A stretch of 37,346 bases of DNA from Promethearchaeota archaeon (GCA_016839745.1 JAEOTS010000081.1:1-37346), one strand, 5' to 3'. Numbered from the stretch's first letter, positions 7,041 to 21,943 are shown. A program made the numbers and translations. Notes: generated from the sequence alone by a model not told the origin.

Positions 7041-8234
7041 ATGATATCAGCACCAAAGATCAATAGTAGTTTTGCAGGCCCTCGAGCGTTGTTTGATCAA
7101 TCTTATATCCCACCTCAAATTCTCTATAGAAAAAACGAAGAAAAGGCTCTTTTTTCAATTCTAAAAGACTCGTATATAGATGGATTTTGTTTAAATATAT
7201 TATATCAAGGGATTCAGGGAATCGGAAAGAAAGTTATAATAAATAAAGTTATTAGGGACTTGTCGCTTTTAAACCCTGAGCTCTTAAACATCCGTAAGGC
7301 TTACATAGATTGCAGGGATAAAAATTTAGAGGAAATAATTATTTCTCTACTTACTGAAATTGGGTTTCATCAGAATATTAATTTCAATTTTAAGAGTATT
7401 ATAAACTCTAATATATCTGATCTATGGAACATCTTTAAATTAACCTGTAAAAAAGCTGACCACAATCTTTTATTTGTTTTCAATAATATTGAGCATTTAA
7501 AACCAGAATTTATTAAGAAATTTCTTCAATATGGCAAAGAAACCAATATTAGCTTAGTATCTACTGGAAATCAAGTTTTAAAATCCTCTACTCTAGATGT
7601 TTTAAGCGAATTCGACATTAAAAAGAAGTTAAATTATTTCTCATATAACGAACTTCACGATATTATAAAACAGAGAATCTCATTAACTTTTAAACATGAA
7701 GTAGATAAAGAATTGATAGAATTTATAACAGATTTAATTTTTGAGCATCATGTTCCTGTACCCGGAAAAGGAATCGAAATTCTTAGAGATCTTTATCCAT
7801 TTTTAAGTAAACAAGTAGAATTGAACCACCTAGAGATCTTTGAAATACTTCAAAGCCAGTTTGAAACTTTACAAATTTCAGACGAATTTAGCATGCTATC
7901 ATACATTTCTGAAGCAGAACTTTTAACTATAATATATCTTGATAATTTATCCAATTATTTCTTAAAAAAATCCAACTTTTATATAACAATAAAGGAATTA
8001 AAAGAATTATATTATGTTTCATGTGAATCCATCAATTTTGAAAAAAGTGAAGAGGAGTTTAAACATCTAATTACAACTTTACGCAATTTAGGAATAATAA
8101 ACGCTTCAAGAAAAAATCTCATCAAGAATTTCAGATATTTCAACGAAAACATATTAAATTATAATTTCTACTTTATGGTGATTAATCCCCAAAATCTAAA
8201 GCACATTGTGGATGCGATTTTTAATAAGCATTAA
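7041..8234 (+). CDS. Divergent, probably ATPase-inactive Cdc6/Orc1-family protein
   Basis: N-terminal LFDQSYIPPQILYRKNE, YIDC and FSYNELHDIIKQR (YxxxELxxILxxR type) motifs; C-terminal wHTH. Walker A GIQGIGKK and Walker B LFVFNNIE are degenerate. Confidence 0.8.
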   Translation: MISAPKINSSFAGPRALFDQSYIPPQILYRKNEEKALFSILKDSYIDGFCLNILYQGIQGIGKKVIINKVIRDLSLLNPELLNIRKAYIDCRDKNLEEIIISLLTEIGFHQNINFNFKSIINSNISDLWNIFKLTCKKADHNLLFVFNNIEHLKPEFIKKFLQYGKETNISLVSTGNQVLKSSTLDVLSEFDIKKKLNYFSYNELHDIIKQRISLTFKHEVDKELIEFITDLIFEHHVPVPGKGIEILRDLYPFLSKQVELNHLEIFEILQSQFETLQISDEFSMLSYISEAELLTIIYLDNLSNYFLKKSNFYITIKELKELYYVSCESINFEKSEEEFKHLITTLRNLGIINASRKNLIKNFRYFNENILNYNFYFMVINPQNLKHIVDAIFNKH

Positions 8235-8398: not shown

Positions 8399-11300
8399 TT
8401 GACGCATATTAAAAAAATCTCAATGACCGGATTTAAATCATTTGGCGATCGTACAGTGACATTAAGGCTCTCTTCAGGGTTCACATGTATCGTCGGACCT
8501 AACGGGGCCGGTAAATCGAATATTATAGACGCTCTAACATTTGCTTTAGGTCGTTTAAGTAAAAAAACCATGAGAGCTAAAAGTCTTGAAGATCTGATTT
8601 TTGCTGGCTCTAGAGGTAAAAATCCTTCAAATAGAGCTTCAGTTACTTTGTATTTCGATAATTCTGAAAAAGTTTTCCCAGGTGGAACTGACACATTTGA
8701 AGTCACTAGAACAATTCAAAGAGGAGGGGGAGGGGGCTATAAAATGAATGGTAAGAAAGCCACCAGACAACAAATTCTTAACGCTCTTGCAACTGCAAAT
8801 GTAGATCCTGATGGTAGTAATCAATTCGTTCTTCAGGGAAAAATAGTAGAGATGACTCATATGAACCCTGAATCTCGTAGAGTATTCATTGAAGATCTTA
8901 TAGGACTTCAGAAATACGATGAGATGAAAGATGCAACAATGAAGGAGTTAGAGAAAGCGGAAAGAGATCTCGGTCAATTTGAAGCAATTTTCAAAGAAGT
9001 ATCATCTCAGTTAAAGAAAGTCGAAAAGGAGAAAAATGACGCTTTAGCTTGGAAGGAATTGGACGAACAGATCAAACTATATAATGCTCAACTAATAGCT
9101 TTAAAAATTGAAAAATTAAGAAAAGAAGAAAATGAACTAGAAGCAAAAATAGAAGAATCTAACACAGCAATTGAAGAATTACAAGAAAAAATAACGAGAC
9201 AAGATGAAATCTTAAAACAAGAATCGTTAGTAATGGAAAATATTCAAAAAACTATATCTGAAAAAGAGAAAGAGAGAGAATTAATCAATGAAAGCATCAC
9301 TCAGCTTAAAACACAGCAATCCTCAAATCAAACCTCTTTAAATCTAGCTAATAAATCAATTGAGAAGATAGCTCAAGAGATAAAAACTTTAGAAAATCTA
9401 CAAATGGTACTCGAAGAAAGTCAAACATATGATTCTTTAATTGAATCGGAATCAAAAATTGTAACGGAAACAGAGAATCGAATTGAGGGTGCAAAGGGTG
9501 AAATAGAAACTAGGCAACAAAAACAAGCCGAAATTGATGTTAATATTAAAAATAACAATGATACACAATCGGGTTTTAAAGGAGAAATTTCTACGGTTAA
9601 ACAGAATATTTCCTCGAACAAAGCTCAAATAAAAGTTTTGAAGGAAAATATAAAAAAAAATGAAGATAAGAAAAAGAAATTAGAAGTAGAACTTAGTAAA
9701 TTGAAAGGAGAATCTGAAAGCGTTGAAGAAGCAATAAAAAGTACAAACAAAGATGCTGAATTAATAAGAAAAGAAATAAGCGACTTAAATATAAAAATAT
9801 CCAAAGAAAATGATAATCAACAAGAATTAGAAAAACTGATAAACGGTTTAAGGGATGAAAAAACTCAATTAAATTCGAAAATAGCTGATTTCAAATCTAT
9901 GTTATCATCTTTAAATACCGAAATTACTATGAACACTAGTAGAATAGAGCGGCTAAATTCGAACAAATTAGCAACAGAGAATAAAATTAAAGAGTTAAGT
10001 AAAGGAAAGGATACAGAAGAAGTTTTAAAGGAATTATTAAAAGAGAGAGAATCCTTCCTTAATGAAGTTAACGATTATAAGGATAAAATAAAACAAGAGG
10101 ATTCTATTTATAGAAAAAATGAGCAGGATTTAGAACTATTACTAATGAAACAAGATTCGGTTGAATCAGAAATTTATGATAACAAGACAAAAATTGAAAA
10201 TATCAACACTAAGTTGAAATTATTAAAAAAGGAATTAACAAATCTTGAAAGAGAAAAACGTGATTTAGTACTAAAAACCTCCACATTAAATGATAATTTA
10301 ACTAAGACTGAGAGTGAATCTCAAAAACTCAATACGAAAAAAGATAACATACAACGACGGATGGGAGAATTAACAACTGAGAAAGATAATTTGTCAGTAA
10401 AAATTGAAAACACAGAAAAAGAGTATGAACGAAATACTGAAGATATTACGGGAATTTTGCAGATATTAAATATGTTGACTCAGAACATCAACATATCCGT
10501 TGAGTCAATAAAAAGCAATATTCAACAATCAAACGCAGAGGCAATTGAAACATCCGCAGTTAACTTCAAACAGTTTGTCTTGGATATAGTCGATATCATG
10601 AAAACTGTTGAAGATGTAAGCTCAGAAGCCGAAGAGGAAGAAAAGTCTGAAACCTCTGAAATGTCTGAAACCCTCAAATCAATTCTTCAAACATTAACCC
10701 TCTTTACTGAGAATGTCGATACAACAATAGATCAGTTAATAGATAATGTAAAAGAATCTGCAGATGTAGAGATACAGCAGTCTACCTCTACATTTGATAG
10801 TTTCGTCCAAGATTTAATGGAAATTTTAGAAAATGTATATCTTTCCTTAAGAAAACTGACTATGTCAAAATCCCAGGAATTATATAAACAACTTGAAGAA
10901 ATCACAGAAAATATCAATTCCCAAAATAACGACTTAAATATCATTGATCGAGATTTAACACGGATAACTACTCAAAATAAACACGATTCAGAAGATTTAG
11001 CAACGAACACCAGAAAGTTAGAAGAAGTCAATAAAAGAATTAGTGAGATAAACGAAAAAGTTGAAAAATCTGAAAGCGAGATCAACCAAAGAAACGCTGT
11101 AATAGGTGAAAAGCAAAAAGAAAATTTCGAGGAAGAAATAAAAAATTTAAAACAAATTAAAGAAGATTATTGGGATAAAATCTCTAATATTAAAAACGAT
11201 ATGGAGATTAAACAAAAGGGATTAGACGAATTACAAACTAAAATGCAAGAACTTCAAGGAATTCAGACCTTCTATGAATCCATCCTTGATATTGAAAAAA

Positions 11301-12862
11301 ATGTACAGGAATTAAATACTGCTATTGACGAAAAGAAAACTGTTATAACCAATACTGAGGACAACATTAAAAACCTCAAACTTGAACAGGATGCTATAAA
11401 TAAGAACATTAAGACTAAAATTGTTGAAAAAGATAACTTTTGGGAAAATACTGAAAAACTTAGAGCGCAAATCGACGATCAAAATAAGAAATTAGAAACT
11501 ACTATGGATAAGTTAAGAGCTCTTGAGAATGTTATGATGGTAATCAATTCAATTGATGAACTTTCTAAAGAAAATGTTGAAGCAAGCAATAGTGTTAATC
11601 AATGCAATCAAAATATAGAAAGTCTAAACTCTCAGGTAGATGAACAGCAAAAAAAGGTCGATGAAGTACAGGTAGTAATAGATTCTTTGAGAGACGAAAA
11701 GAATAAGGAATTAGAGGCACAAAAGAAAGCACAGAAAGAGTTAAATAAACTGAACAAAGATCTTCAAAAATCTCAATCAAAACTTAACGAATTGAACAAG
11801 AACAAGGAAAGAGAGCAAAAAATCATATCACTTAATGAAGATGTAAAAACTACTGAAAAGCAAATAGAATCCATTTTAAAAGATATAGAAAAAATTGAAG
11901 TTGAACTGAAACAGGAAGACGCTAAAAAGAACATTAAGCAGGAAGAAATAAATAAGGAAATACAAGGTAAAGATTTATCGTGGAAGAAGCAGAAGAACTA
12001 TCAAAAGCAAATAAACGATTTAAAAGCCGATCACTCAATGGAAAATTCCAAGTTAAATAATTATGAATCTAAAAAAATTATAACAACAGATCAAATAGAA
12101 ACCTTGTATCAACGCTCTAAAGATTATGGTGCTTTACCTCCATTTACTGACGATTTATCTGAATCAGGACTTCAATCAGACATCTCTACAGCTGATAACA
12201 AGAAAAAAACTCTGGAACCTGTTAATTTAAAAGCTATCAAACAATTTGATACCGTAAAAGAACGTTTTGATGAAATTGATATGAGGAGACAAACTATACA
12301 AAGGGAGAGAAAATCGATTCTCGACGCCATCGATAAAATCGAGCTAGAAAAAACTAGAACCTTTATGAAAGCGTATCACGAAATTAATCGAGAATTTGCA
12401 CGGATCTTCCAAAAACTATCTCCGGGAGGTTCAGCGAAGATGATTTTAGATCGCCCTGATAAACCCTTTGAGGGAGGTGTAAGCATAGAAGCTCGACCTC
12501 GAGGAAAAAAAATCAGTAGTCTTGAAATTCTCAGCGGAGGCGAAAAAACGCTCGTCGCCCTCTCGTTTATCTTTGCGGTGCAGGAGTTCTATCCTGCTCC
12601 TTTTTATATAATGGACGAGATCGATGCGGCCTTGGACTCGCCGAATGTTCACAGAGTCTCCATGGTCATAAAGGAATTTGCACGACAGGCACAATTCATG
12701 GTTATTAGCCACAGAGAGGAGAATATTGTAAACGCCGACCGGATTTATGGAGTTTCAATGCAACAAAGTGGAATCACTGACATTTTTAGCGTTGATTTAG
12801 AAGAAGAGGCGAAAAGGCTACTTGAATTACCAGATGTGCCTCCTAATATTGAAGAAAATTAA
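8399..12862 (+). CDS. smc: Chromosome segregation SMC ATPase (long, non-canonical hinge region)
   Basis: GFKSF, Walker A GPNGAGKSNIIDA, Q-loop FVLQG, signature LSGGEK, Walker B/D-loop YIMDEIDAALD, H-loop VISH, long coiled coils; TTG start. Confidence 0.96.
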   Translation: MTHIKKISMTGFKSFGDRTVTLRLSSGFTCIVGPNGAGKSNIIDALTFALGRLSKKTMRAKSLEDLIFAGSRGKNPSNRASVTLYFDNSEKVFPGGTDTFEVTRTIQRGGGGGYKMNGKKATRQQILNALATANVDPDGSNQFVLQGKIVEMTHMNPESRRVFIEDLIGLQKYDEMKDATMKELEKAERDLGQFEAIFKEVSSQLKKVEKEKNDALAWKELDEQIKLYNAQLIALKIEKLRKEENELEAKIEESNTAIEELQEKITRQDEILKQESLVMENIQKTISEKEKERELINESITQLKTQQSSNQTSLNLANKSIEKIAQEIKTLENLQMVLEESQTYDSLIESESKIVTETENRIEGAKGEIETRQQKQAEIDVNIKNNNDTQSGFKGEISTVKQNISSNKAQIKVLKENIKKNEDKKKKLEVELSKLKGESESVEEAIKSTNKDAELIRKEISDLNIKISKENDNQQELEKLINGLRDEKTQLNSKIADFKSMLSSLNTEITMNTSRIERLNSNKLATENKIKELSKGKDTEEVLKELLKERESFLNEVNDYKDKIKQEDSIYRKNEQDLELLLMKQDSVESEIYDNKTKIENINTKLKLLKKELTNLEREKRDLVLKTSTLNDNLTKTESESQKLNTKKDNIQRRMGELTTEKDNLSVKIENTEKEYERNTEDITGILQILNMLTQNINISVESIKSNIQQSNAEAIETSAVNFKQFVLDIVDIMKTVEDVSSEAEEEEKSETSEMSETLKSILQTLTLFTENVDTTIDQLIDNVKESADVEIQQSTSTFDSFVQDLMEILENVYLSLRKLTMSKSQELYKQLEEITENINSQNNDLNIIDRDLTRITTQNKHDSEDLATNTRKLEEVNKRISEINEKVEKSESEINQRNAVIGEKQKENFEEEIKNLKQIKEDYWDKISNIKNDMEIKQKGLDELQTKMQELQGIQTFYESILDIEKNVQELNTAIDEKKTVITNTEDNIKNLKLEQDAINKNIKTKIVEKDNFWENTEKLRAQIDDQNKKLETTMDKLRALENVMMVINSIDELSKENVEASNSVNQCNQNIESLNSQVDEQQKKVDEVQVVIDSLRDEKNKELEAQKKAQKELNKLNKDLQKSQSKLNELNKNKEREQKIISLNEDVKTTEKQIESILKDIEKIEVELKQEDAKKNIKQEEINKEIQGKDLSWKKQKNYQKQINDLKADHSMENSKLNNYESKKIITTDQIETLYQRSKDYGALPPFTDDLSESGLQSDISTADNKKKTLEPVNLKAIKQFDTVKERFDEIDMRRQTIQRERKSILDAIDKIELEKTRTFMKAYHEINREFARIFQKLSPGGSAKMILDRPDKPFEGGVSIEARPRGKKISSLEILSGGEKTLVALSFIFAVQEFYPAPFYIMDEIDAALDSPNVHRVSMVIKEFARQAQFMVISHREENIVNADRIYGVSMQQSGITDIFSVDLEEEAKRLLELPDVPPNIEEN
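10454..10837 (+). repeat. Protein-level tandem duplication (2 x 52 aa) at the SMC apex
   Basis: 10454-10609 ILQILNMLTQN...FKQFVLDIVDIMKTV aligns without gaps to 10682-10837 ILQTLTLFTEN...FDSFVQDLMEILENV; 16/52 identical by hand count. Confidence 0.85.
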
Positions 12863-12900: not shown

Positions 12901-13908
12901 ATATCAGAAGACAACGGTGGGGAGAAAAAATATAACTTCAATGATTGGACTGTAAAACAGTTAAGAGATTTTGCTAGCAGGAATCATATTAAAATTCCCA
13001 CTAAATCTAAGAAGAACGAAATTATTAAGCTTATAGAACAAATTTCTTCACATCCTGAATTCGTTGATAGAACTCAAGAAGACGAGGTTGAAGAAGAGGA
13101 AATAGAAGAGGAATTAATTGCCGGTGAAGAAGAAGATCCAGCGTTACTCCACAAAGAAAAGATGGAGCTCAAATTCTGGCAAAAACCTCCCTATTCTAGT
13201 TTATTGGACCCAGAAGTGGCAAAAGAGTCCAATGTTGCATTCTATGACTTATCTTCATTAGTAGATAAATTCTTTAATAATATGCTTCACGAAGATTTAA
13301 TCAATTACAAAATCTCGGGCATAGCACTTAAGACATCTGCAATTTTGCATCACTACAAGATATCTAGTATAATTCGAGAGGAAGAACAAATACAAAAAAA
13401 AGAAGAGTTAGAACGTTTTAGGGAAAGGCATGGTAGATCAATACCCAAATCTTTAGCACAACCCATTCAACCTAAAATGTTGATTTCTACAAAGGATGAA
13501 TTATTTGAAGCTATGAGATCTGCTATAATCGAAACGATGCAAAACAAAGAGAAATTGAAACGCAGAAGAATGAGACGGGACGAATTAAAAGAACAAAAAC
13601 TTCAAATAAAATCCAAAGCCCAATTACCAAAAGAACTTTTAAAGCACATTAGTGGCAGGGAGCAAACCGTACAAGAATTACATGATTCTTGGTTTAACCG
13701 CATCAAATCTAAAATACAACTTGATGATAAAGAAACATCCTTTTTTGAAATAGCTGAGCTTATTAATACCGAAGAAGAAAGCGACCTTGGCAAGAAGTTC
13801 GCTTTTGTGCGTATGTTTTTAGCTTTAATGTTCCTCTCGACTGGTAGTAAGTTAGAACTTTATCAAGACGAGGATTTTAAGAATTTCTCAATAAATTTAA
13901 AGAAATAA
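12901..13908 (+). CDS. scpA: Kleisin ScpA with N-terminal SAP/HeH-like domain and acidic linker (335 aa; probable ATA start)
   Basis: ScpA N-domain (YDLSSLVDKF...NYKISGIALKTSAILHHYK) and C-terminal wHTH (FVRMFLALMFL...LELYQDEDF). Frame is open upstream of ATG 13162 to TGA 12892-12894; GGTGA at 12890-12894 lies 6 nt before ATA 12901. Confidence 0.85.
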   Translation: MSEDNGGEKKYNFNDWTVKQLRDFASRNHIKIPTKSKKNEIIKLIEQISSHPEFVDRTQEDEVEEEEIEEELIAGEEEDPALLHKEKMELKFWQKPPYSSLLDPEVAKESNVAFYDLSSLVDKFFNNMLHEDLINYKISGIALKTSAILHHYKISSIIREEEQIQKKEELERFRERHGRSIPKSLAQPIQPKMLISTKDELFEAMRSAIIETMQNKEKLKRRRMRRDELKEQKLQIKSKAQLPKELLKHISGREQTVQELHDSWFNRIKSKIQLDDKETSFFEIAELINTEEESDLGKKFAFVRMFLALMFLSTGSKLELYQDEDFKNFSINLKK

Positions 13909-13937: not shown

Positions 13938-14810
13938 CTGAACGAAAGAAATGAAAAAGAACAAGAAGATCAATTCGAATCCGAAACGGAAGAAGAAACA
14001 CCTTTAGACGAGACTAGTGATGAAGAAATTGTTCAAGAAGAAAGGATTATAGAAGATACTGAGATCGATATAGAAACCGAAGAGACAATAGAAGAATCTC
14101 TTAAAGAAGATTTTGAAGAAAAATATACCCAAGAAAATATTGAAGTAGAAATTGGTATTGAGAAGGAAGATTTATTGAGTCTCCAACCCTCAGTAGAAAG
14201 TTTAGAAGAACAAGATACCGAAGTTATAGGAGAATATACAACTGAATCCCACATGACTCAAGAACTCACGAAAGAAGATTTAGAATTACAATTAAAAGTT
14301 CTACGAAGGAATCTTATAGAAGGTGCTCTTTATGCTGCCGGTAGACCTCTGGATGTAGAGGAATTATCTACTAAATTAGAAATCCCAAAAAAAGAAGTAG
14401 AAGAACTTGTGAGAGTTGTTGCTTTTGACTATTTAGAGCGTGAGGGTGCATTGATTGTTGCTCAAATTGGAGAAAAATATCAAATGCAGCTAAGACCTGA
14501 ACTTACCGAGACAGTTTCCAAATTTGCTAAAGGAGGTGCCATTGCTGAGCGCTATTTAAGAACACTTACTGTAATTGCTTTAAAACAACCAATTTTAAAG
14601 TCAACAGTTATTAAAATACGAGGAACCGGTGCTTATGAGCATGTTAAATACCTCTTAGACAATGATTTGGTAACTGCTGTAAAAAAAGGAAGATCAGCTG
14701 AATTAACCACAACAGATAAGTACGCAGACATGTTCGGACTACCTAAAAATAAGGAAGAACTGAAAAGGATGATGATTTCACAATTAGATCTTGGAGAAAA
14801 TAACGATTAA
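13938..14810 (+). CDS. scpB: SMC-Scp complex subunit ScpB (kite) with long acidic N-terminal tail (290 aa; probable CTG start)
   Basis: IEGALYAAGRPL, LRTLTVIALKQPI, KIRG, YEHVKYL and TTDKYADMFGL are ScpB motifs. Frame is open back to TAG 13932-13934; GGTGA at 13927-13931 lies 6 nt before CTG 13938. Confidence 0.88.
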   Translation: MNERNEKEQEDQFESETEEETPLDETSDEEIVQEERIIEDTEIDIETEETIEESLKEDFEEKYTQENIEVEIGIEKEDLLSLQPSVESLEEQDTEVIGEYTTESHMTQELTKEDLELQLKVLRRNLIEGALYAAGRPLDVEELSTKLEIPKKEVEELVRVVAFDYLEREGALIVAQIGEKYQMQLRPELTETVSKFAKGGAIAERYLRTLTVIALKQPILKSTVIKIRGTGAYEHVKYLLDNDLVTAVKKGRSAELTTTDKYADMFGLPKNKEELKRMMISQLDLGENND

Positions 14811-15042: not shown

Positions 15043-17421
15043 TTAAAATTGTGTTCGAGCAATGATATCATCTTGTGCGGGTTTTGATAATTCTGTGAAT
15101 AGAACAGAATACCCAGCTATCCTTACTACTAATCCTTGGTGTTCTTCAGGATTTTCTTGGGCGTCGCATAGAGTCTGTTTTCCCACTACATTAAATTGGA
15201 TGTGAAATCCTCCATTTTCTACGAAATAAGTTCTAATAAGTGGTACAAATAGCTCAATTTTAAGACTATTAGGATGAAACGCAAGAATTATTGAATTCCC
15301 ATTCGTAATAAGTTCATTTTCCAACTTTTTAATTGAATTAAGTATCGCAGTGGGACCATTTTTATCCATTCCATTAGTAGGTCCAATTCCATTAGAAAGA
15401 CAATATCTTGATTTGCGTCCATCTGCAGATGCTGCTGTAAAAACTCCAAATGCTAAGTGAAAAGATGTAGTGTAAATCCCGGGATTATAATTACCTCCTC
15501 TATAATTATTATGTTTAAGAATTTCCTCACAAAATAAATTTGCAACATCACGAGCTATACTATCGACAAAATCATTGTCGTTTCCGAACTTTGGGATTTT
15601 ATGGATAAAAAATTGTCTCCACTCTTCACCCTTTTTCCCGTTATATGTACCTCTATAATTCTTTGAGAGCATGGTTATAAGCTCTTCCAAAGAAAGTAAT
15701 TTATCATCAAAAACAACTTTTTTAATTACTGCTAAACTGTCAACAACGGTGGCAAACCCAATTAGTTGAGTAGTAGTGAAATCATACTTAGCACCTCCAT
15801 TTGTAATGTCTAATCCTTTATCGATACAATCATCTGTTGTAGCAGATAAAAATGGTTGTGGACTAAGTTCTGCTATAGTTTTTTCCAAAAAATACATAGT
15901 TTTTACCATATTTTTAACAAAATATTTAAGCTGATACGAAAATTCGTCCCATAAATCATGATATGAAGTAATTTTTTTTGAATTTTGAATACCATATTCC
16001 TTGCGAGAAAACATATCTGTACCGTTATTTAGAGTTAATTCTAGATACTTTACGATATTCATTTGAGTAGCATTAGTACATCCGAATGATTTACATGGGT
16101 GTGCTGGCTCTACACATCCTATTGGCGCGTATTCGCGTGAATCTTCCAGAGAATAGCCAAGATCATTGAGACCCGGAATCATTACTAAATCGTTAAACAA
16201 GGCAATGCTTGCTCCAGATTTAATTGCCTCTCCGGTTTTAATAACTAAATCATCTGGAGTTTTTTCATGAACGCGAACGGAAAAAGCAGGTTGAATTGTT
16301 TTTAGATTGTTATATGCCTTCAAGAGGAGATATGATAATTGATTGGTTGCATCATTACCATCCCTATCTACGCCTCCAATCGTTAAGTTTTCAGCAATAG
16401 GTGGTCCTTCAGCGGCTACAATTCCTTTATGGGGCACATAATTCCATAATGTAGAAAGTTTTAGGTAAAAGCATTCGATTAAAAACTGAATTTCTTCGTC
16501 ATTGATAACTCCTTTCTTTTTGTCAATAACATAATATGGGTATAAAACTTGATCTAAACGACCTATACTAATTGCAAAACCTCCGTCTTCTAAACCAGAT
16601 ATAATGTGAGTAAAATAAATTAATTGAAGAGCTTCTTTAAACGAATTAGGTGGATTATAAGATATATTAGAACAAATTTCAGAAATTTCAATGAGTTCAT
16701 TTTTCCTAGAATTTATATTCTCTTTTTCCGCCAGTTCGGCTGCTAAATTTGAAAACCGTTGAATAAATTTTTTAGCGCCCTCTAAAACAATGATAACTGT
16801 CTCTAAAAAGTTTAATTTTTCTTGATCTTCCGAAAAATCCTTAATTTTTTCTGTAGCTTTTTGGATCAAGCCATTAAATCCTACTTTTAAGACATTCTGG
16901 TGTCCAGGGAAAAAATGCCCAACTCCATTTGTTATATTAGTGTCTACTACATAAAACAGGTTTAACATAAGCTCAGTTAATTCAGGGTTAAGATAAGAAT
17001 CAAACCTAGATTTAACAGTTTCCTCTTCGTGTCTCCAATAGGGGATAACCTGATCTTTTAATATCTTTTTATCCTCTTCTTTCAGTAAAAATCGTTGGAT
17101 TTCGCGATTATTATACAACTCCAAATCTTGTTCAAGAGTATCAACACGTATTTCAGGGTATAGGGGTGTTCCTACAAACTTAGTACATCGATTCCCAACA
17201 ACAAATTCATCTTCCCATATTTTTATTGTCATATTCGTCAATAAATGGTACACAGCTTTCGCAAACCTAATATTTTGGGGTTTATTCTTTGTAGCCTTAT
17301 AGGACTCAGTGAAAAGTTTAGCTCTTTCTATACAGAGTTCATGCGGCTGGGAAACAACTTCCTTTTTCATTCTTAGAATACGATCCTTATAACCAGAGGG
17401 AGAAAATTGCTCTAATTGCAT
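15043..17421 (-). CDS. Glycyl radical enzyme (PFL2/eliminase-like), substrate unknown
   Basis: Gly loop LVVRIAGYS, single-Cys loop GCVEP, PKFGNDND, GRLDQVLYPYY, HIQFNVV. Confidence 0.93.
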   Translation of the reverse strand: MQLEQFSPSGYKDRILRMKKEVVSQPHELCIERAKLFTESYKATKNKPQNIRFAKAVYHLLTNMTIKIWEDEFVVGNRCTKFVGTPLYPEIRVDTLEQDLELYNNREIQRFLLKEEDKKILKDQVIPYWRHEEETVKSRFDSYLNPELTELMLNLFYVVDTNITNGVGHFFPGHQNVLKVGFNGLIQKATEKIKDFSEDQEKLNFLETVIIVLEGAKKFIQRFSNLAAELAEKENINSRKNELIEISEICSNISYNPPNSFKEALQLIYFTHIISGLEDGGFAISIGRLDQVLYPYYVIDKKKGVINDEEIQFLIECFYLKLSTLWNYVPHKGIVAAEGPPIAENLTIGGVDRDGNDATNQLSYLLLKAYNNLKTIQPAFSVRVHEKTPDDLVIKTGEAIKSGASIALFNDLVMIPGLNDLGYSLEDSREYAPIGCVEPAHPCKSFGCTNATQMNIVKYLELTLNNGTDMFSRKEYGIQNSKKITSYHDLWDEFSYQLKYFVKNMVKTMYFLEKTIAELSPQPFLSATTDDCIDKGLDITNGGAKYDFTTTQLIGFATVVDSLAVIKKVVFDDKLLSLEELITMLSKNYRGTYNGKKGEEWRQFFIHKIPKFGNDNDFVDSIARDVANLFCEEILKHNNYRGGNYNPGIYTTSFHLAFGVFTAASADGRKSRYCLSNGIGPTNGMDKNGPTAILNSIKKLENELITNGNSIILAFHPNSLKIELFVPLIRTYFVENGGFHIQFNVVGKQTLCDAQENPEEHQGLVVRIAGYSVLFTELSKPAQDDIIARTQF

Positions 17422-17530
17422 TTTTAATCAATAAAATTCGTAATTTTTAATATTGAATAAATGATTTATATTAAATTTTAATATAACTGTAAAACTAAAT
17501 AAAAGTTGTTAAAATTGAATTTCACTAATC

Positions 17531-18373
17531 TTAATTTAGAATCAATACTTCGTTTATTAAACCCCTCTTCTGGGAATTACTATTTATATTTCGTTTAGCT
17601 CTCAATGTAACAATTTTAAAATCTTTATATAAATCTAATACGAATTCGGAATAGGAATTACTCAGCATTAAATTGCACCCTCTTCTATCAAGTTCCTTAA
17701 ACACCTCAAATAATTTTATCTGGGAAGGTTTATCAAAAATATCTTTTGTATAACTTGTAAATAAAGCAGTGTCAGAAAGTGGAAAATAAGGTGGATCTAG
17801 GTAAATAAAATCACCCTTTTCGGCAAAATCTAAACAAACTTCGAAAGAACCTAAATATATTTTAACGTTTTTTAAAACTTGACTTACTTTTCTTAAATTT
17901 TCCTCGTCGCATATTTTTGGATTTTTATGCCTTCCAAAGGGCACATTAAAGAAACCTTTACTATTGACGCGATATAGGCCGTTATATCCACTTTTGTTTA
18001 AATAAATTGATCGCGAAGCTTTCTCAATATCTGATAATTCTGCGTATTTATTTTGATCCCGGTCGAGAGCTCGAATTTTATAATAATAATCCTTTTCGTA
18101 TCTATGTTTCTTTAAAGATTTTATCAAACCCTCTACATTTTCTTTTATAACATTATAGCAATTTACTAAATCGGGATTATTATCTGATATAATTGAATTT
18201 TCGGGAAGTAAATAGAAAAAAACGGCTCCACCACCAATAAAAGGCTCAATATATTTATTATAATTTTTAGGAAAAAATTTATCCATTTGAGAAATAAGTT
18301 GCCTTTTACCTCCAGCCCACTTTAAAAAAGGATGTGGTTGAGTATTTTGAGTCAAATTTCTAATGAAGATCAA
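17531..18373 (-). CDS. dam: Dam-family (D12 class) N6-adenine DNA methyltransferase
   Basis: LKWAGGK, YIEPFIGGGAVF, GYNGLYRVNSKGFFNVPFG, catalytic YLDPPY. Confidence 0.92.
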   Translation of the reverse strand: MIFIRNLTQNTQPHPFLKWAGGKRQLISQMDKFFPKNYNKYIEPFIGGGAVFFYLLPENSIISDNNPDLVNCYNVIKENVEGLIKSLKKHRYEKDYYYKIRALDRDQNKYAELSDIEKASRSIYLNKSGYNGLYRVNSKGFFNVPFGRHKNPKICDEENLRKVSQVLKNVKIYLGSFEVCLDFAEKGDFIYLDPPYFPLSDTALFTSYTKDIFDKPSQIKLFEVFKELDRRGCNLMLSNSYSEFVLDLYKDFKIVTLRAKRNINSNSQKRGLINEVLILN

Positions 18374-18481
18374 AATATTTTTTGTACTGTTTATACTATA
18401 TAAAAATATAGATTAAAAATTAACAATTACTATAACCATAAATAAAATATATTTAGAACCATTATTCCAGTAGATTTTAAG

Positions 18482-19423
18482 ATGATAGATAAACAAAAAT
18501 TTGAGGAACTGTTTAACAAACGACTTATCAAGGATATTTCTGAGGAACAAATTGATATTGTTTTATCAGGACAATATGGTAAAGCTTTAGAATTGCTTAG
18601 AGACGCAGAAGCAACGGGATTATTCCCTGCTCTTGTTGGACCGCCCGGAGTAGGAAAGACAATTCTATGCCGATATTTTGCTAGGTTAAGAGCTAAGGAA
18701 AACAAAAATAAAAATTTTAATTGGTTAACAATGGATGAATCTATAAAACCTAGCCACTTCATAGGCAGTTTCGACCCGGCTATTACATTGAAAAAAGGTT
18801 TTGTATTAGAAGCTTTTAATCCCGGACCTCTTTTGAGAGCAATGTTGGAAGGTGGAACATTTTTAGCAAATGAAATAAATCGAGCTACGGAATACTCGCA
18901 AAATACATTATTAGAACCTTTAGAGGAAGCATCAATTAGCATCCCTCATTTAGGTAGAATTAAGGCTGATAAAGATTTCTTTTTTATTTCTGCCATGAAT
19001 CCGGAAGAACTTTCAGGAACTCATAGGTTGTCTGAGGCATTAAAAGATAGAATAAAAGTTTGGATAAAATTATCTTATCCAGATAAAGCAACCGAGCTTG
19101 ATATAATAAGAATAAATTTACCAGAACATTTCATTATAGAAGAATCTGAATTAGAATTGATTTATTCAATTATTAATGAAACGAGAAAGAATAAAATAGA
19201 CATTGAAATACCTGCCTCTATTAGAGCCGGTATAGCGATTGCTAAACTATTAGCTCGCAGAAAAACTTTAGAAAAAAAAGGAGAATTAAAAGAAAAGACA
19301 ACAATCAATGAATATCTTTCACAAGTTACCCAGAATGTGTTACTAGGTAGCATCAAACCAAAACCGGGCGCAAAAGTTGAAAACATCATTGACAGTATTA
19401 TCCATAAAACATTAGGTGCCTAG
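18482..19423 (+). CDS. MoxR-family AAA+ ATPase
   Basis: Walker A GPPGVGKT, PGPLLRAM, Walker B variant FLANEINRA, AMNPEE, Arg finger LSEALKDR. Confidence 0.9.
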   Translation: MIDKQKFEELFNKRLIKDISEEQIDIVLSGQYGKALELLRDAEATGLFPALVGPPGVGKTILCRYFARLRAKENKNKNFNWLTMDESIKPSHFIGSFDPAITLKKGFVLEAFNPGPLLRAMLEGGTFLANEINRATEYSQNTLLEPLEEASISIPHLGRIKADKDFFFISAMNPEELSGTHRLSEALKDRIKVWIKLSYPDKATELDIIRINLPEHFIIEESELELIYSIINETRKNKIDIEIPASIRAGIAIAKLLARRKTLEKKGELKEKTTINEYLSQVTQNVLLGSIKPKPGAKVENIIDSIIHKTLGA

Positions 19424-19441
19424 GAGGTAAAGAGTAATTTT

Positions 19442-21943
19442 ATGGGAGTTTTTCCAGAAAATCCATGTGAATTTGCTGTAGATTTCATTCGAAAAATGCG
19501 AAGACATCGCGAAATTGTGCAAATCCCATCTTCACGTCAAGTCTTATCCATTCCTAAATTAATTTTATCGAGATATTATCGTAAGGGGTTGGTTAACCCC
19601 AACGATTATATTGAGATTAGCACTGTTACTTCCTTCCCTGACAATCAAGAGTTAGCGAAAGATATTGCTTTTCAGATTCTGTTTCCAAATTACAAAAAAG
19701 ATATCATGGATTCCTTTTTTAATGGTGATGATTATGGTGAAGGCGATTCTGCTGAAGACCTTCTAGGAACCGATATTCAATCAGAATTGGACAAACTTCA
19801 AGAAATGATTGATGAAATTGAGATGACTAAATCAATAGATACTGAAAAAATCCAAAAATTAGAAGAATTTCTTAATGAGTTAAACTCTAAACGTGATGAA
19901 GATCCATATAAGTCTGCATTACAATTTTTTAACGACGACTCAGAATTATACAAAGAAGAAATAACCTCCTTAGAAGATTTGATTCAAGAAGCGCAAAGAA
20001 GGTTAGAACAGAAAATCAACTCCCTGAATCCCGAAGATTTAAAAGCAGGCTCGAACTTAGGTTTAAACGATTTAATTCAGCAAAAATCATTAAGAGAATG
20101 GGAAAAACTAGCAAGCAAAGCACTGAATAATCAAAATATTGCTGAAGATTTATCTAAATTAATTAATTCCGATAAACTAGATGATCTTTTAAAATCTATT
20201 AAATTTATCGATGAGACTTCGGATAATCAAAGTGTAAAAGACCAAATCCAAAATGCAAAAAATCAACTAAAAAATCAACTTAAAAATTTAGACCAGCTAT
20301 TTAACGCTGCGAAAACTTTAGGTGAACTTCCTAAGTTTGATCTAGATAACATTTTAAATAACTCTTTACAACAATCTTCTTTCGAACATAATTTTAGTTT
20401 AGCAGATTCATTAGATCAATATTTTGGTACCAATCTAAGAGAAAAATTGCTTAATAGCCTTGATCAGCAATCGTCAAATTCTCAGATGAATCTATCGTTA
20501 GAGAGTTTGACAAAAAATGCATTTGCTAATAAATCTTGGAACGATCTATTTAACCAAGCTCTTGAGAATGCAATTAATGAAGCCAGTAATGAAAATATAA
20601 AATTTGAAGCGTTTAAATCGTTATCTCATCAAATACAACAGTTAATGAATAGTTGTCCTAATATGCACTGTGGCCAAAAAATATCCCAAAAATTACCTGA
20701 TTTAATCTCAAAAACTCTAGAGGCTTGTGAAACTGCTGATCAATTAAAAAACGCAACAGAATTCCTTAGAAAGATCGGATTGGATCCTGATTCTGAAGAT
20801 ATTAAAAGGATTGGGAAAAATTTAGAAATGTCCGAAGAAGAAATATACGAGTTAATTGAACCCAACTATCAATTGCTAAAAAAAATGGTTGAAAAAAATA
20901 TTGCCGATTTTCAACGAGTAAGTAATTTAATGGAACAGTTACGCGATCAGTTAAATAGAGAAAGAATTAAAGAACTCCTAAGCAGTGCTTTCGCTAACGA
21001 CAACAGAGATGCTTTAGGAGCTCTTGGTCATTTTGATTTGGCTGAAGCTTTGAAAGGAGCTCAACAAATTGGAGGAAAAGAGGGACAGGATAAAGTAATA
21101 TCTTGTTTATCTGCTGGAAGTGGCGAAAATCTCCTTAGACAATGGTTTATCCATAGGTCAACTTTACCAGAAAAAGTAAAAATAAAAGTGAAAGAATTAG
21201 CAAAGAAAATGCTAATTGATTTAGGTATTTATTACTCAAGAGCTCGCTTAGGAAGCGCAACAACAGGAACTATACCTATCAATGTAGTAAGGCCATACAC
21301 TATAGGAGACGATTTTGAAAACATTGATTTAGAAGAAACTATATTCAATCTTTTAGAAAAAGGGAAAAAATTAGATCATATAAATTACGATGATTTTTAT
21401 GTTTACGAGACCGCGAAGGGATTACGTTCATTTTGCTTTGAACTTGACATTAGTGGCTCAATGACGGGTGAAAAGCTTGCGTATATGGCTATTTGTGTGA
21501 CAATGTTAGTATATGGCATGCGAAAAGACGAAATAGGCGTTGCATTTTTCGAGTCAGATACACATGTATTAAAGAGATTATCTGAAAAAGTAGATATGGA
21601 AAAATTAGCAGATGAATTACTTATGGTTTCTGCCAAGGGAGGTACCCGGCTTCAAGGTGCTTTAGAATGGGCAAACAAACAATTTAAAGAAAACTCTAGC
21701 TCTCGCGAGAAATTAAATGTTCTTTTTACTGATGCAGAAATTTACGATATTCAACAAGCTAATGAAGAATTAAGGAAACTTCGTTCTTTAAATGTAGATT
21801 TCATTTTAGTCTCTCCAGAATCCTCCTTTAATTTAAAAGAAGCGGAAAAAATGGTAAAAATAGCAGGAGGACAACTTTTGACAATTAAAGATTGGAATGA
21901 ATTTCCAAAATTAATGTCAGAGATTATAAACTCGAGATTTTAA
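19442..21943 (+). CDS. VWA (MIDAS) domain protein, MoxR partner
   Basis: C-terminal DISGSM, GGT and LFTD MIDAS elements; preceding RPYTIGDDFENIDLEET motif; GGAGG ribosome-binding site. Confidence 0.88.
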   Translation: MGVFPENPCEFAVDFIRKMRRHREIVQIPSSRQVLSIPKLILSRYYRKGLVNPNDYIEISTVTSFPDNQELAKDIAFQILFPNYKKDIMDSFFNGDDYGEGDSAEDLLGTDIQSELDKLQEMIDEIEMTKSIDTEKIQKLEEFLNELNSKRDEDPYKSALQFFNDDSELYKEEITSLEDLIQEAQRRLEQKINSLNPEDLKAGSNLGLNDLIQQKSLREWEKLASKALNNQNIAEDLSKLINSDKLDDLLKSIKFIDETSDNQSVKDQIQNAKNQLKNQLKNLDQLFNAAKTLGELPKFDLDNILNNSLQQSSFEHNFSLADSLDQYFGTNLREKLLNSLDQQSSNSQMNLSLESLTKNAFANKSWNDLFNQALENAINEASNENIKFEAFKSLSHQIQQLMNSCPNMHCGQKISQKLPDLISKTLEACETADQLKNATEFLRKIGLDPDSEDIKRIGKNLEMSEEEIYELIEPNYQLLKKMVEKNIADFQRVSNLMEQLRDQLNRERIKELLSSAFANDNRDALGALGHFDLAEALKGAQQIGGKEGQDKVISCLSAGSGENLLRQWFIHRSTLPEKVKIKVKELAKKMLIDLGIYYSRARLGSATTGTIPINVVRPYTIGDDFENIDLEETIFNLLEKGKKLDHINYDDFYVYETAKGLRSFCFELDISGSMTGEKLAYMAICVTMLVYGMRKDEIGVAFFESDTHVLKRLSEKVDMEKLADELLMVSAKGGTRLQGALEWANKQFKENSSSREKLNVLFTDAEIYDIQQANEELRKLRSLNVDFILVSPESSFNLKEAEKMVKIAGGQLLTIKDWNEFPKLMSEIINSRF

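Follow-up and report, generated by a model that had tools for sequence, protein, structure and literature searches.

Is the long arm of an archaeal Smc protein built from repeated units and, if so, in what steps would such an arm change its length? The question is raised by a 37,346-nucleotide stretch from a Promethearchaeota archaeon (GCA_016839745.1 JAEOTS010000081.1:1-37346; here called the window), whose preliminary description pointed to an exact 90-residue periodicity in the C-terminal arm of an encoded Smc. The gene is the smc of a presumed smc-scpA-scpB operon in a Lokiarchaeia-type archaeon, with the following features.

8399..12862, plus strand: smc, 1487 aa with a TTG start, encoding a hinge-less Smc with a canonical ABC head
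10454..10861, plus strand: conserved all-helical apex of Smc (aa 686-821) in the hinge position, with an acidic tip loop (aa 747-753)
13162-13908: presumed scpA, between smc and scpB, without a Pfam match
14175..14810, plus strand: scpB (kite subunit), downstream of smc, matching PF04079 SMC_ScpB (1.6e-33)

The smc translation matched PF02463 over aa 3-1460 (1.2e-40) and scored 583 bits with TIGR02168, above its cut-off of 567, and 594 with TIGR02169, under its cut-off of 729. It contains GPNGAGKS, LSGGEK and MDEIDAALD, and among solved structures it is matched best by Smc head domains (5XEI and 4I99, for example). Rad50 models fell far short of their cut-offs (42-91 bits vs 700-1087), and no Rad50-type CxxC zinc hook was found in the translation, in which C30 and C1070 are the sole cysteines. 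An identical order of smc, unnamed gene and scpB occurs at a locus of the Sigyn clade (L053). The protein resembles canonical prokaryotic Smc-ScpAB (Pyrococcus/Bacillus; TIGR02168/TIGR02169; PF02463 + PF06470) in its ABC head with Walker A, signature and Walker B, its predicted folded-back helical arms and the downstream scpB, but differs in having a helical apex in place of the hinge, an arm region ~290 aa longer and internal repeats.

The PF06470 hinge domain had no match in this Smc at an E-value of 0.01, with a model that detected the hinge in another ORF of the same genome and in 10 control genomes. Relatives of 1473-1487 aa, more than 120 in number, likewise have no hinge domain, PF06470 being absent from every relative among the matches listed, and the hinge-less family was restricted to one Asgard order among those searched. 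Its existence indicates that an Smc without a hinge domain is a viable architecture. The apex contains many invariant residues and is a helix-loop-helix in the AlphaFold2 model (pLDDT 45-69). Between aa 170 and 1305 the model (pLDDT 77) is nearly all helix around the tip loop, and heptad periodicity runs throughout the arms. Hinge-less SMC variants consisting of head and arms, with neither hinge nor zinc hook, have been described in marine Actinobacteria (Sussfeld et al. 2025, PMC12153180); those variants are bacterial, and the account of them drawn on here mentions no arm repeat, length classes or Asgard members.

Other Asgard Smc proteins have 1183-1203 aa and a hinge, so that the present protein is 285-300 aa longer, in line with the excess of about 300 aa over typical Smc first reported for it. 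When long and canonical Smc were aligned globally with MAFFT, the extra residues were spread over 12 gaps and the extension could not be located. Alignment of arm profiles with hhalign gave clear collinearity only in the head-proximal parts (N-strand aa 171-337 to canonical 172-339, C-strand aa 992-1297 to canonical 685-1006), with distal correspondence at background level.

On the C strand, the W/L codons of KEDYW, KDNFW, KNKEL and KDLSW lie at 11171, 11441, 11711 and 11981 (aa 925, 1015, 1105 and 1195), and the 270-nt spacing originally noted is exact. The K-x-x-x-[WL] motif used to find it is too frequent to be meaningful (22 occurrences in the arms), and the signal is carried instead by the tryptophans. 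Three of the four in the protein (218, 925, 1015 and 1195) are spaced 90 and 180 residues apart, and across 150 family members, down to ~32% identity, they are conserved in 150 (W925), 141 (W1015) and 149 (W1195) sequences. Division of the strand at this spacing gives the following units.

10901..11170, plus strand: R0 (aa 835-924), beside the apex, not clearly repeat-like
11171..11980, plus strand: R1-R3 (aa 925-1014, 1015-1104 and 1105-1194), exactly 90 aa each
11981..12250, plus strand: R4 (aa 1195-1284), opening with the third conserved tryptophan (W1195) and continuing into the head-proximal joint

Self-similarity of the C arm peaked at offset 90, followed by offset 180; z at offset 90 was 3.7 in the single sequence and 4.7-4.8 in profiles. 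In shuffles of heptad blocks, which preserve composition and heptad phase, the best offset averaged -0.04 ± 0.08 against an observed 0.49, a value reached in 0 of 500 shuffles. Self-alignment at +90 by hhalign scored 167 with 20% identity; its gaps were confined to the first ~30 columns and it was ungapped over aa ~909-1226, within which segment 910-1226 has a constant length of 317 aa across the 150 relatives. R1, R2 and R3 open with [YF]W, [FY]W and E-L, respectively. R1 and R2 align over all 90 columns (score 74.5), R2-R3 and R1-R3 score 41 and 40, and the shift is 0 in each case. Heptad phase slips by about +1 residue near aa 960, 1050 and 1140, that is, every 90 aa. R0 scored at background against the other units (19-31), with a phase slip of about -1.3 near aa 907 and an AlphaFold2 break at 907-910. 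R4 resembles R3 over its first ~30 residues only; it scored 177 against the Sigyn block SD and has AlphaFold2 breaks at aa 1244-1254 and 1273-1278. Offset 90 was also the best C-arm offset in the single distant sequences of L. ossiferum P0299, P0125 and P0129; the distant member P0130 gave 97 and 104 rather than 90.

The N strand also contains a repeat, of a different length.

9128..10303, plus strand: N1-N4 (aa 244-341, 342-439, 440-537 and 538-635), 97-98 aa each
9401..9427, plus strand: break 1 (aa 335-343), EESQTYD loop, non-helical in the AlphaFold2 model
9704..9721, plus strand: break 2 (aa 436-441), KGESES loop, non-helical, pLDDT ~59
9998..10012, plus strand: break 3 (aa 534-538), SKGKD loop, non-helical, pLDDT ~54

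The N strand matched itself at offset 97-98 over aa ~278-634 (hhalign score 198, 21% identity), a segment (278-634) of 357 aa in 150 of 150 relatives. The best single diagonal lay at offset 195, reached in none of 500 heptad-block shuffles and best in the N arm of all long forms tested as single sequences; offset 195 here and offset 90 in the C arm are both outliers (z = 4.4-4.8). Unit-pair scores were 86 (N2-N3), 73 (N3-N4), 61 (N1-N3) and 55 (N1-N2), and in-register pairs on both strands together scored 40-86 vs 10-34 for unrelated pairs. Each N unit ends in a short loop, break 2 aligns in register with breaks 1 and 3, and the heptad phase slips by +0.9 at aa ~340 (break 1) and by +0.5 to 0.9 near aa 536 (break 3). 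ELSKLKGE (432) and ELSKGKD (532), previously taken to mark loose repeats of about 85-105 aa, are real, but belong to the loops of a regular repeat of 97-98 aa.

The repeat signal is well above the heptad background on both strands, as had been proposed. The self-scores of 167 (C) and 198 (N) compare with 60-106 for controls consisting of canonical Asgard arms against themselves, the long N arm against the long C arm, and Sigyn arms against themselves. No arm repeat was detected in the 17 canonical Asgard Smc proteins tested, and neither the 90-aa nor the 97-aa periodicity was present in three other long Smc proteins (P0233, 1331 aa; P0241, 1383 aa; P0253, 1276 aa). At the DNA level no tandem or direct repeat was found at 270 nt, the sole match being one of 34 nt at 79% identity and a spacing of 810 nt; the missing DNA-level repeat excludes both recent duplication and assembly artefact.

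The hinge-less family falls into two length classes, of 1462-1505 and 1290-1304 aa, which form reciprocally monophyletic sister clades. The short (Sigyn) clade has 97 N-strand and 88 C-strand residues fewer than the long class, a difference of one unit per strand, and no intermediate arm lengths were seen between the two classes, in agreement with the expectation that orthologues differ in whole steps. The Smc of L047 (1386 aa) is not such an intermediate, its extra 200 aa being one block after residue 39, near Walker A and outside the arm. The Sigyn repeat signal is weak (hhalign self-scores 60-70), with no 97-aa signal in the N arm. AlphaFold2 places N-strand breaks every ~98 aa; the long form has three and the Sigyn model two, with no predicted counterpart of break 3. 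The C-strand gap was placed at 888-975 by MAFFT and at ~838-927 by hhalign.

In the unit trees, units from different clades cluster according to position, with support ranging from weak to good; the units named as missing in Sigyn are N3 and R0, which are positionally unpaired under the strand pairing proposed below. It is conceivable, at somewhat less than even odds, that the hinge-less family began with a four-unit arm and that the Sigyn clade later lost one unit per strand. The N-strand tree, in which Sigyn SN3 groups with long-form N4 (98% SH-aLRT) and N3 falls outside, hints that the four-unit state predates the split, and in the C-strand tree Sigyn SA, SB and SC pair with R1, R2 and R3 at 70-82% support. 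However, reciprocally monophyletic sisters do not allow parsimony to settle gain against loss, and the long-form paralogue scores of N2-N3 and N3-N4 match those between orthologues of the two clades (59-75), in keeping with a younger duplication. Moreover, the trees were built on 90-97 columns and their support is too weak to date the last duplication, the weak C-strand tree naming a different missing unit from the N-strand tree.

We interpret these observations as a segmented, hinge-less Smc arm of tandem units, each of roughly one superhelical turn, which probably arose from old duplications; we assign this reading a probability of about 0.7. Under it, the antiparallel coiled coil from head to tip would be divided into tandem units of ~13 nm each. 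A C-strand unit would be 90 residues, or 13 heptads minus one residue, with the register slipping one residue at each unit boundary and a conserved aromatic-Trp pair lying ~30 residues ahead of each of the first two slips; the tryptophans are possibly points of arm-to-arm contact. An N-strand unit would be a 92-residue helix followed by a loop of 5-9 residues. From the geometry and the matching break positions, discontinuities on opposite strands probably form three pairs at unit boundaries, facing each other at N ~339 and C ~1140, N ~438 and C ~1048, and N ~536 and C ~955. In length the unit would equal the functional period of Smc arms, ~91 residues or roughly one superhelical turn, and old tandem duplications on both strands would have produced an arm ~1.5 times the canonical length.

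Gain or loss of whole units on both strands would keep the rotational phase between head and tip, which would explain the two length classes and the lack of indels in the repeat segments of the 150 long-class relatives. Phase-preserving extension of a natural Smc arm, as suggested in the preliminary description, has a counterpart in the one-unit step between the clades, which may be a gain or a loss; it concerns a hinge-less Smc, the step from canonical Smc not being a clean multiple of 90 because the hinge domain is absent. The larger ring, likewise suggested there, would be a predicted consequence of the longer arm. A more specific and tentative version, to which we give somewhat less than an even chance, is that the sequence encodes, in its 90/98-residue unit, a ruler of one superhelical turn, each turn carrying a conserved Trp contact and a paired discontinuity, such that the arm changes by whole turns only.

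The whole-length, in-register alignment of the units makes old tandem duplication their most likely origin, and ancient duplication is our best reading; of the modular duplication originally proposed, the alignable units and the longer arms stand, and the duplication itself is an interpretation. Against it are the ~20% identity between units, the lack of a nucleotide repeat, and R0 and most of R4 not being repeat-like. Such low identity would also be expected if the periodicity were real but had arisen without duplication, with a structural or binding constraint acting once per turn and moulding unrelated coiled coil into look-alike units; candidate constraints are contact with the partner arm or a need for discontinuities in supercoil relaxation. 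The best-conserved shared features do look like functional landmarks, namely the aromatic-Trp pair, the loops and the phase slips, and Bacillus Smc has a ~91-aa functional period without a sequence repeat (Burmann 2017, PMC5344682). We nevertheless consider this origin unlikely, as the units align across all 90-97 columns with a shift of 0-2, beyond the landmarks, their grouping by position across clades is like that of diverged paralogues, and canonical Asgard arms, presumably with the same period to judge from Burmann 2017, have no repeat. Chance over heptad periodicity and a low-complexity, K/E/N-rich composition is rejected as the source of the 270-nt spacing: although the K-x-x-x-[WL] motif is common and every offset that is a multiple of 7 or shares the heptad phase scores above average, neither arm's score was reached by shuffling, the tryptophans and segment lengths are conserved in the 150 relatives, and distant single sequences show the signal again, while canonical and other long Smc proteins lack it.

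Periods above the heptad are known from other coiled coils: tropomyosin has seven ~40-aa actin-binding periods, and the myosin II rod has 28-aa and ~196-aa repeats with skip residues, its heptad discontinuities being regularly spaced. In tropomyosin, whole-period deletions are tolerated and partial ones are not, as cited in PMC5344682. The likeness lies in sequence periods linked to the superhelix; those proteins, however, are parallel two-chain coiled coils that bind or pack into filaments, whereas the present arm is an intramolecular antiparallel hairpin with unequal unit lengths on its strands. Closer is Bacillus subtilis Smc, for which the preliminary description had quoted the ~90-residue rule correctly: resizing showed a 91-aa viability period, and natural arm lengths have modes at 341, 423 and 515 aa (Burmann 2017, Mol Cell, PMC5344682). 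That period compares with the 90 aa of the C strand and the 92 helical residues of the N strand here, and natural arm lengths likewise fall in ~100-aa steps, with arm indels poorly tolerated. The multimodal rule is already published, but no within-arm sequence repeat is given in Burmann 2017, whereas the present family has alignable units, putatively paired discontinuities and sister clades one unit apart. The sequence sets of that study were collected via hinge alignments (PMC5344682), so a hinge-less family was probably not among them, and a literature search returned no account of repeats within SMC arms or of the architecture of the Asgard hinge-less family.

Engineering in Bacillus showed that Smc arms work only at lengths ~91 residues apart, and the evolutionary route between such lengths was not shown there. 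In the hinge-less Smc this period can be read from the sequence itself, both strands containing alignable units, and the view that natural arm length shifts in steps of roughly 90 residues, like those tolerated in the Bacillus constructs, is largely supported. The Loki-type and Sigyn-type proteins, with four and three units and the same head and apex, constitute a natural arm-length pair. If the ruler reading is true, this matched pair could serve to test how arm length relates to DNA capture or the step size of loop extrusion, and how a hinge can be replaced, in a lineage close to the origin of eukaryotic SMC complexes, among the closest archaeal relatives of eukaryotes.

The window encodes an Smc protein of 1487 aa in the following gene neighbourhood:
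7041–8234, ORF of 397 aa upstream of smc, without a Pfam match at E 0.001
8399–12862 (+), smc
13162–13908, unnamed ORF of 248 aa between smc and scpB, without a Pfam match at E 0.001, presumed to encode ScpA
14175–14810, scpB, downstream of smc

The SMC head (PF02463) covers aa 3–1460, TIGR02168 scores 583 bits (above the cut-off) and the top matches among solved structures are crystal structures of Smc heads. The hinge domain (PF06470) was absent in a Pfam domain search, and inspection of the translation revealed no CxxC hook. The place of the hinge is occupied by an apex (window 10454–10861; aa 686–821), which is conserved more strongly than any other part of the arm region and is all-helical with two similar halves and an acidic loop at its predicted turn; AlphaFold2 confidence is low here (pLDDT 45–69). 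At the presumed ScpA position, the gene in the Sigyn locus L053 encodes 404 aa. Neighbouring genes at 15043–21943 encode a pyruvate-formate-lyase-like glycyl radical enzyme (792 aa), a D12-class adenine methyltransferase, and a MoxR-type AAA+ ATPase that precedes a VWA protein of 833 aa.

Both arms carry a long-range sequence period. In the C arm (aa 860–1250), the mean BLOSUM score per diagonal peaked at offset 90 (z 3.7 for the single sequence, 4.7–4.8 for profiles built from 42 or 21 sequences), with offset 180 as runner-up. The observed value of 0.49 was reached by none of 500 profiles shuffled in heptad blocks, a null that preserves composition and register and whose best offset averaged −0.04 ± 0.08. 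Comparison of the C-arm profile with itself using hhalign gave a second alignment at +90 (score 167, 20% identity), with gaps confined to the first ~30 columns and none between about aa 909 and 1226, a third at +180 (score 83) and a further, weak alignment at +270. The N arm has a 97–98-aa unit, with an hhalign self-hit of 198 over aa ~278–634 and a top diagonal at offset 195 (0/500 shuffles). Three controls (canonical Asgard arms and Sigyn arms, each compared with themselves, and the long N arm compared with the long C arm) placed the coiled-coil background in hhalign at 60–106. The arm periodicity proposed in the preliminary description therefore stands above the heptad background in either strand.

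Individual units align in register, with shifts of 0–2 and nearly the whole unit covered, both on the C strand (R1–R3, aa 925–1194; R1–R2 74.5, R2–R3 41, R1–R3 40) and on the N strand (N1–N4, aa 244–635; N2–N3 86, N3–N4 73, N1–N3 61, N1–N2 55), while cross-strand and remaining pairs score 10–34. As the flanking segment R0 (835–924) and most of R4 (1195–1284) show no repeat character, the C strand comprises some 3.5 repeats rather than five. Distant members examined as single sequences peak at the same offsets, among them Lokiarchaeum ossiferum (1505 aa), P0125 and the short-class P0129, with the exception of the C arm of P0130. Such offsets were not found in the canonical Smc alignment, in two ordinary-length single sequences (P0211 and P0222) or in three unrelated long Smc proteins.

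The period had originally been read from four K-x-x-x-[WL] motifs, whose W/L codons do lie at 11171, 11441, 11711 and 11981 (aa 925, 1015, 1105 and 1195). This pattern occurs 22 times in the arms and so carries no information by itself. The protein has four Trp in all (218, 925, 1015 and 1195), and among 150 aligned family members with identity down to about 32%, W925 is conserved in 150, W1015 in 141 and W1195 in 149, with Leu, Val or Ile at position 1105 in most. W925 and W1015 are each preceded by Tyr or Phe and followed by a slip in heptad phase about 30 residues further on; reading of the sequence around aa 910–952 places Trp at heptad e, adjoining an aromatic d residue. A search for a 270-nt DNA repeat found none, so the repeats are old and an assembly artefact is excluded. 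At the nucleotide level, only a 34-nt direct match (79%) between 11130–11163 and 11940–11973 keeps the phase of the repeat; it is spaced 810 nt (three times 270) and encodes the residues that immediately precede W925 and W1195. This match is rich in A and may be due to chance.

When the hydrophobic phase (3.5 residues) was followed through the family profile, the C strand showed plateaus separated by ~1-residue slips at about aa 960, 1050 and 1140, i.e. every 90 residues, which makes a unit one residue short of 13 heptads. N-strand slips occur at about aa 340 and 536; the loop at about aa 438 is in phase, since 14 heptads make up 98 residues. An AlphaFold2 model of aa 170–1305 (50-sequence alignment, mean pLDDT 77) is helical throughout bar a few non-helical breaks, which on the N strand (335–343, 436–441 and 534–538) enclose two 92-residue helices and on the C strand lie at 907–910, 952–955, 1244–1254 and 1273–1278, with a pLDDT dip at 1040–1049. 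The geometry of folding back at the tip loop (747–753) would pair N 536 with C ~955, N 438 with C ~1048 and N 339 with C ~1140. The arms of canonical Asgard Smc show one or two slips at irregular places and no periodic set.

Searching 1.84 billion representative proteins recovered hinge-less family clusters of 1464–1497 aa and one of 1296 aa, below which scores fall steeply to canonical Smc proteins, whose matches are confined to head and C arm. The protein of 1296 aa, which carries the label Sigynarchaeota, stands for nine clusters of 1290–1304 aa. A tree of head domains recovers the hinge-less family as a single clade (100% SH-aLRT) of two sister classes, short (99%) and long (1462–1505 aa; 97%). 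Relative to the window protein, the short class lacks 97 N-strand, 88 C-strand and 10 acidic-tip-loop residues and retains two Trp, 180 apart. It has two C-strand slips (88–90 apart) against three in the long form, and two N-strand breaks (AlphaFold2, pLDDT 80.5) against three. Segments 910–1226 and 278–634 are identical in length in all 150 long-class sequences. The span between two landmarks of the head, the YD and PVN motifs, is 807–821 aa in canonical Asgard Smc, 905 aa in the short class and 1099 aa in the long class, leaving arms of roughly 325, 390 and 480 aa after subtraction of the hinge or apex. The expectation that orthologue lengths would differ in whole units per strand thus holds from short to long, a step of one clean unit, whereas the canonical-to-short step is confounded by replacement of the hinge. 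A 1386-aa Smc (L047, G035:C14) was rejected as an intermediate arm length, as its 200-aa insert adjoins Walker A rather than lying in the arm. L047 is a canonical Asgard Smc with this single insertion directly after residue 39, absent from its congener L037 (1187 aa, 74% identical), and the insertion looks like a mini-intein or inserted domain.

The unit missing from the short class cannot be pinned down because the units resemble one another: the gap falls at C 888–975 and N 479–589 with MAFFT, and at C ~838–927 and N 490–586 with hhalign. In unit trees, the Sigyn blocks SN1, SN2 and SN3 pair with N1, N2 and N4 (88–98% SH-aLRT), leaving N3, and SA, SB and SC pair with R1, R2 and R3 (70–82%), leaving R0. 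These pairings hint at a four-unit state no younger than the split between classes, and the short clade may therefore have lost a unit. However, paralogue scores within the long form equal orthologue scores between classes, and with two sister classes parsimony does not discriminate between a gain in the long class and a loss in the short one.

Among the matches listed, relatives of the window protein (1473–1487 aa, none with a hinge) all carry Asgard source labels, mostly Lokiarchaeota, Promethearchaeota or Lokiarchaeia. In a survey of 151 Asgard genomes, full-length matches were confined to two families of one order (24/25 genomes of the window's own family and 2/2 of the second), and all other genomes with a match have a canonical, hinge-bearing Smc of about 1183–1203 aa. 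Five genomes of the order (G040, G144, G129, G089 and G138; loci L031–L035) encode both the hinge-less long form and a canonical hinge-bearing Smc of about 1195–1203 aa; the three canonical copies included in the head-domain tree (L031, L032 and L034) form their own long-stemmed clade. Within the window's genus, this query detected no such canonical copy, finding the hinge-less form alone in 11 of 12 genomes and neither in G109. Given these two patterns, the hinge-less form behaves like a paralogue that took the place of canonical Smc in some lineages. The window's genome also contains a second SMC-superfamily ORF, P0309 (about 1140–1160 aa; G000 contig C38, L052:1940–5428, +), with a hinge (PF06470, 33.7 bits) and a divergent head (TIGR02168 just 180 bits; Walker A GPNWSGKT), which may be a candidate for the SMC5/6-related archaeal type of Yoshinaga and Inagaki 2021 (PMC8665677).

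Resizing of the Bacillus Smc arm showed that function is limited to length windows with a 91-aa period, close to the ~99-aa superhelical period, and natural prokaryotic arm lengths, from sequences collected by hinge alignments, have modes at 238, 341 and 515 aa and minor modes at 163 and 423 aa (Burmann et al. 2017, PMC5344682). The rule that arm lengths are multimodal was already known. That study names tropomyosin and myosin alone as coiled coils with long-range sequence periods and reports no internal repeats in SMC arms; our literature search likewise found no report of such repeats and no description of the architecture of the hinge-less Asgard family. In the literature found, marine Actinobacteria are the sole group with described hinge-less SMC proteins (PMC12153180). 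As a pattern, phase-preserving change of arm length in whole units has good support. For the origin of the units, the main rival is a periodic constraint acting without duplication, which we consider unlikely; duplication is the best reading, with a probability of roughly 0.7. What is new is a sequence-level arm unit whose discontinuities would be paired across the strands, a pair of sister clades differing by one such unit, and the hinge-less context in which the units occur.
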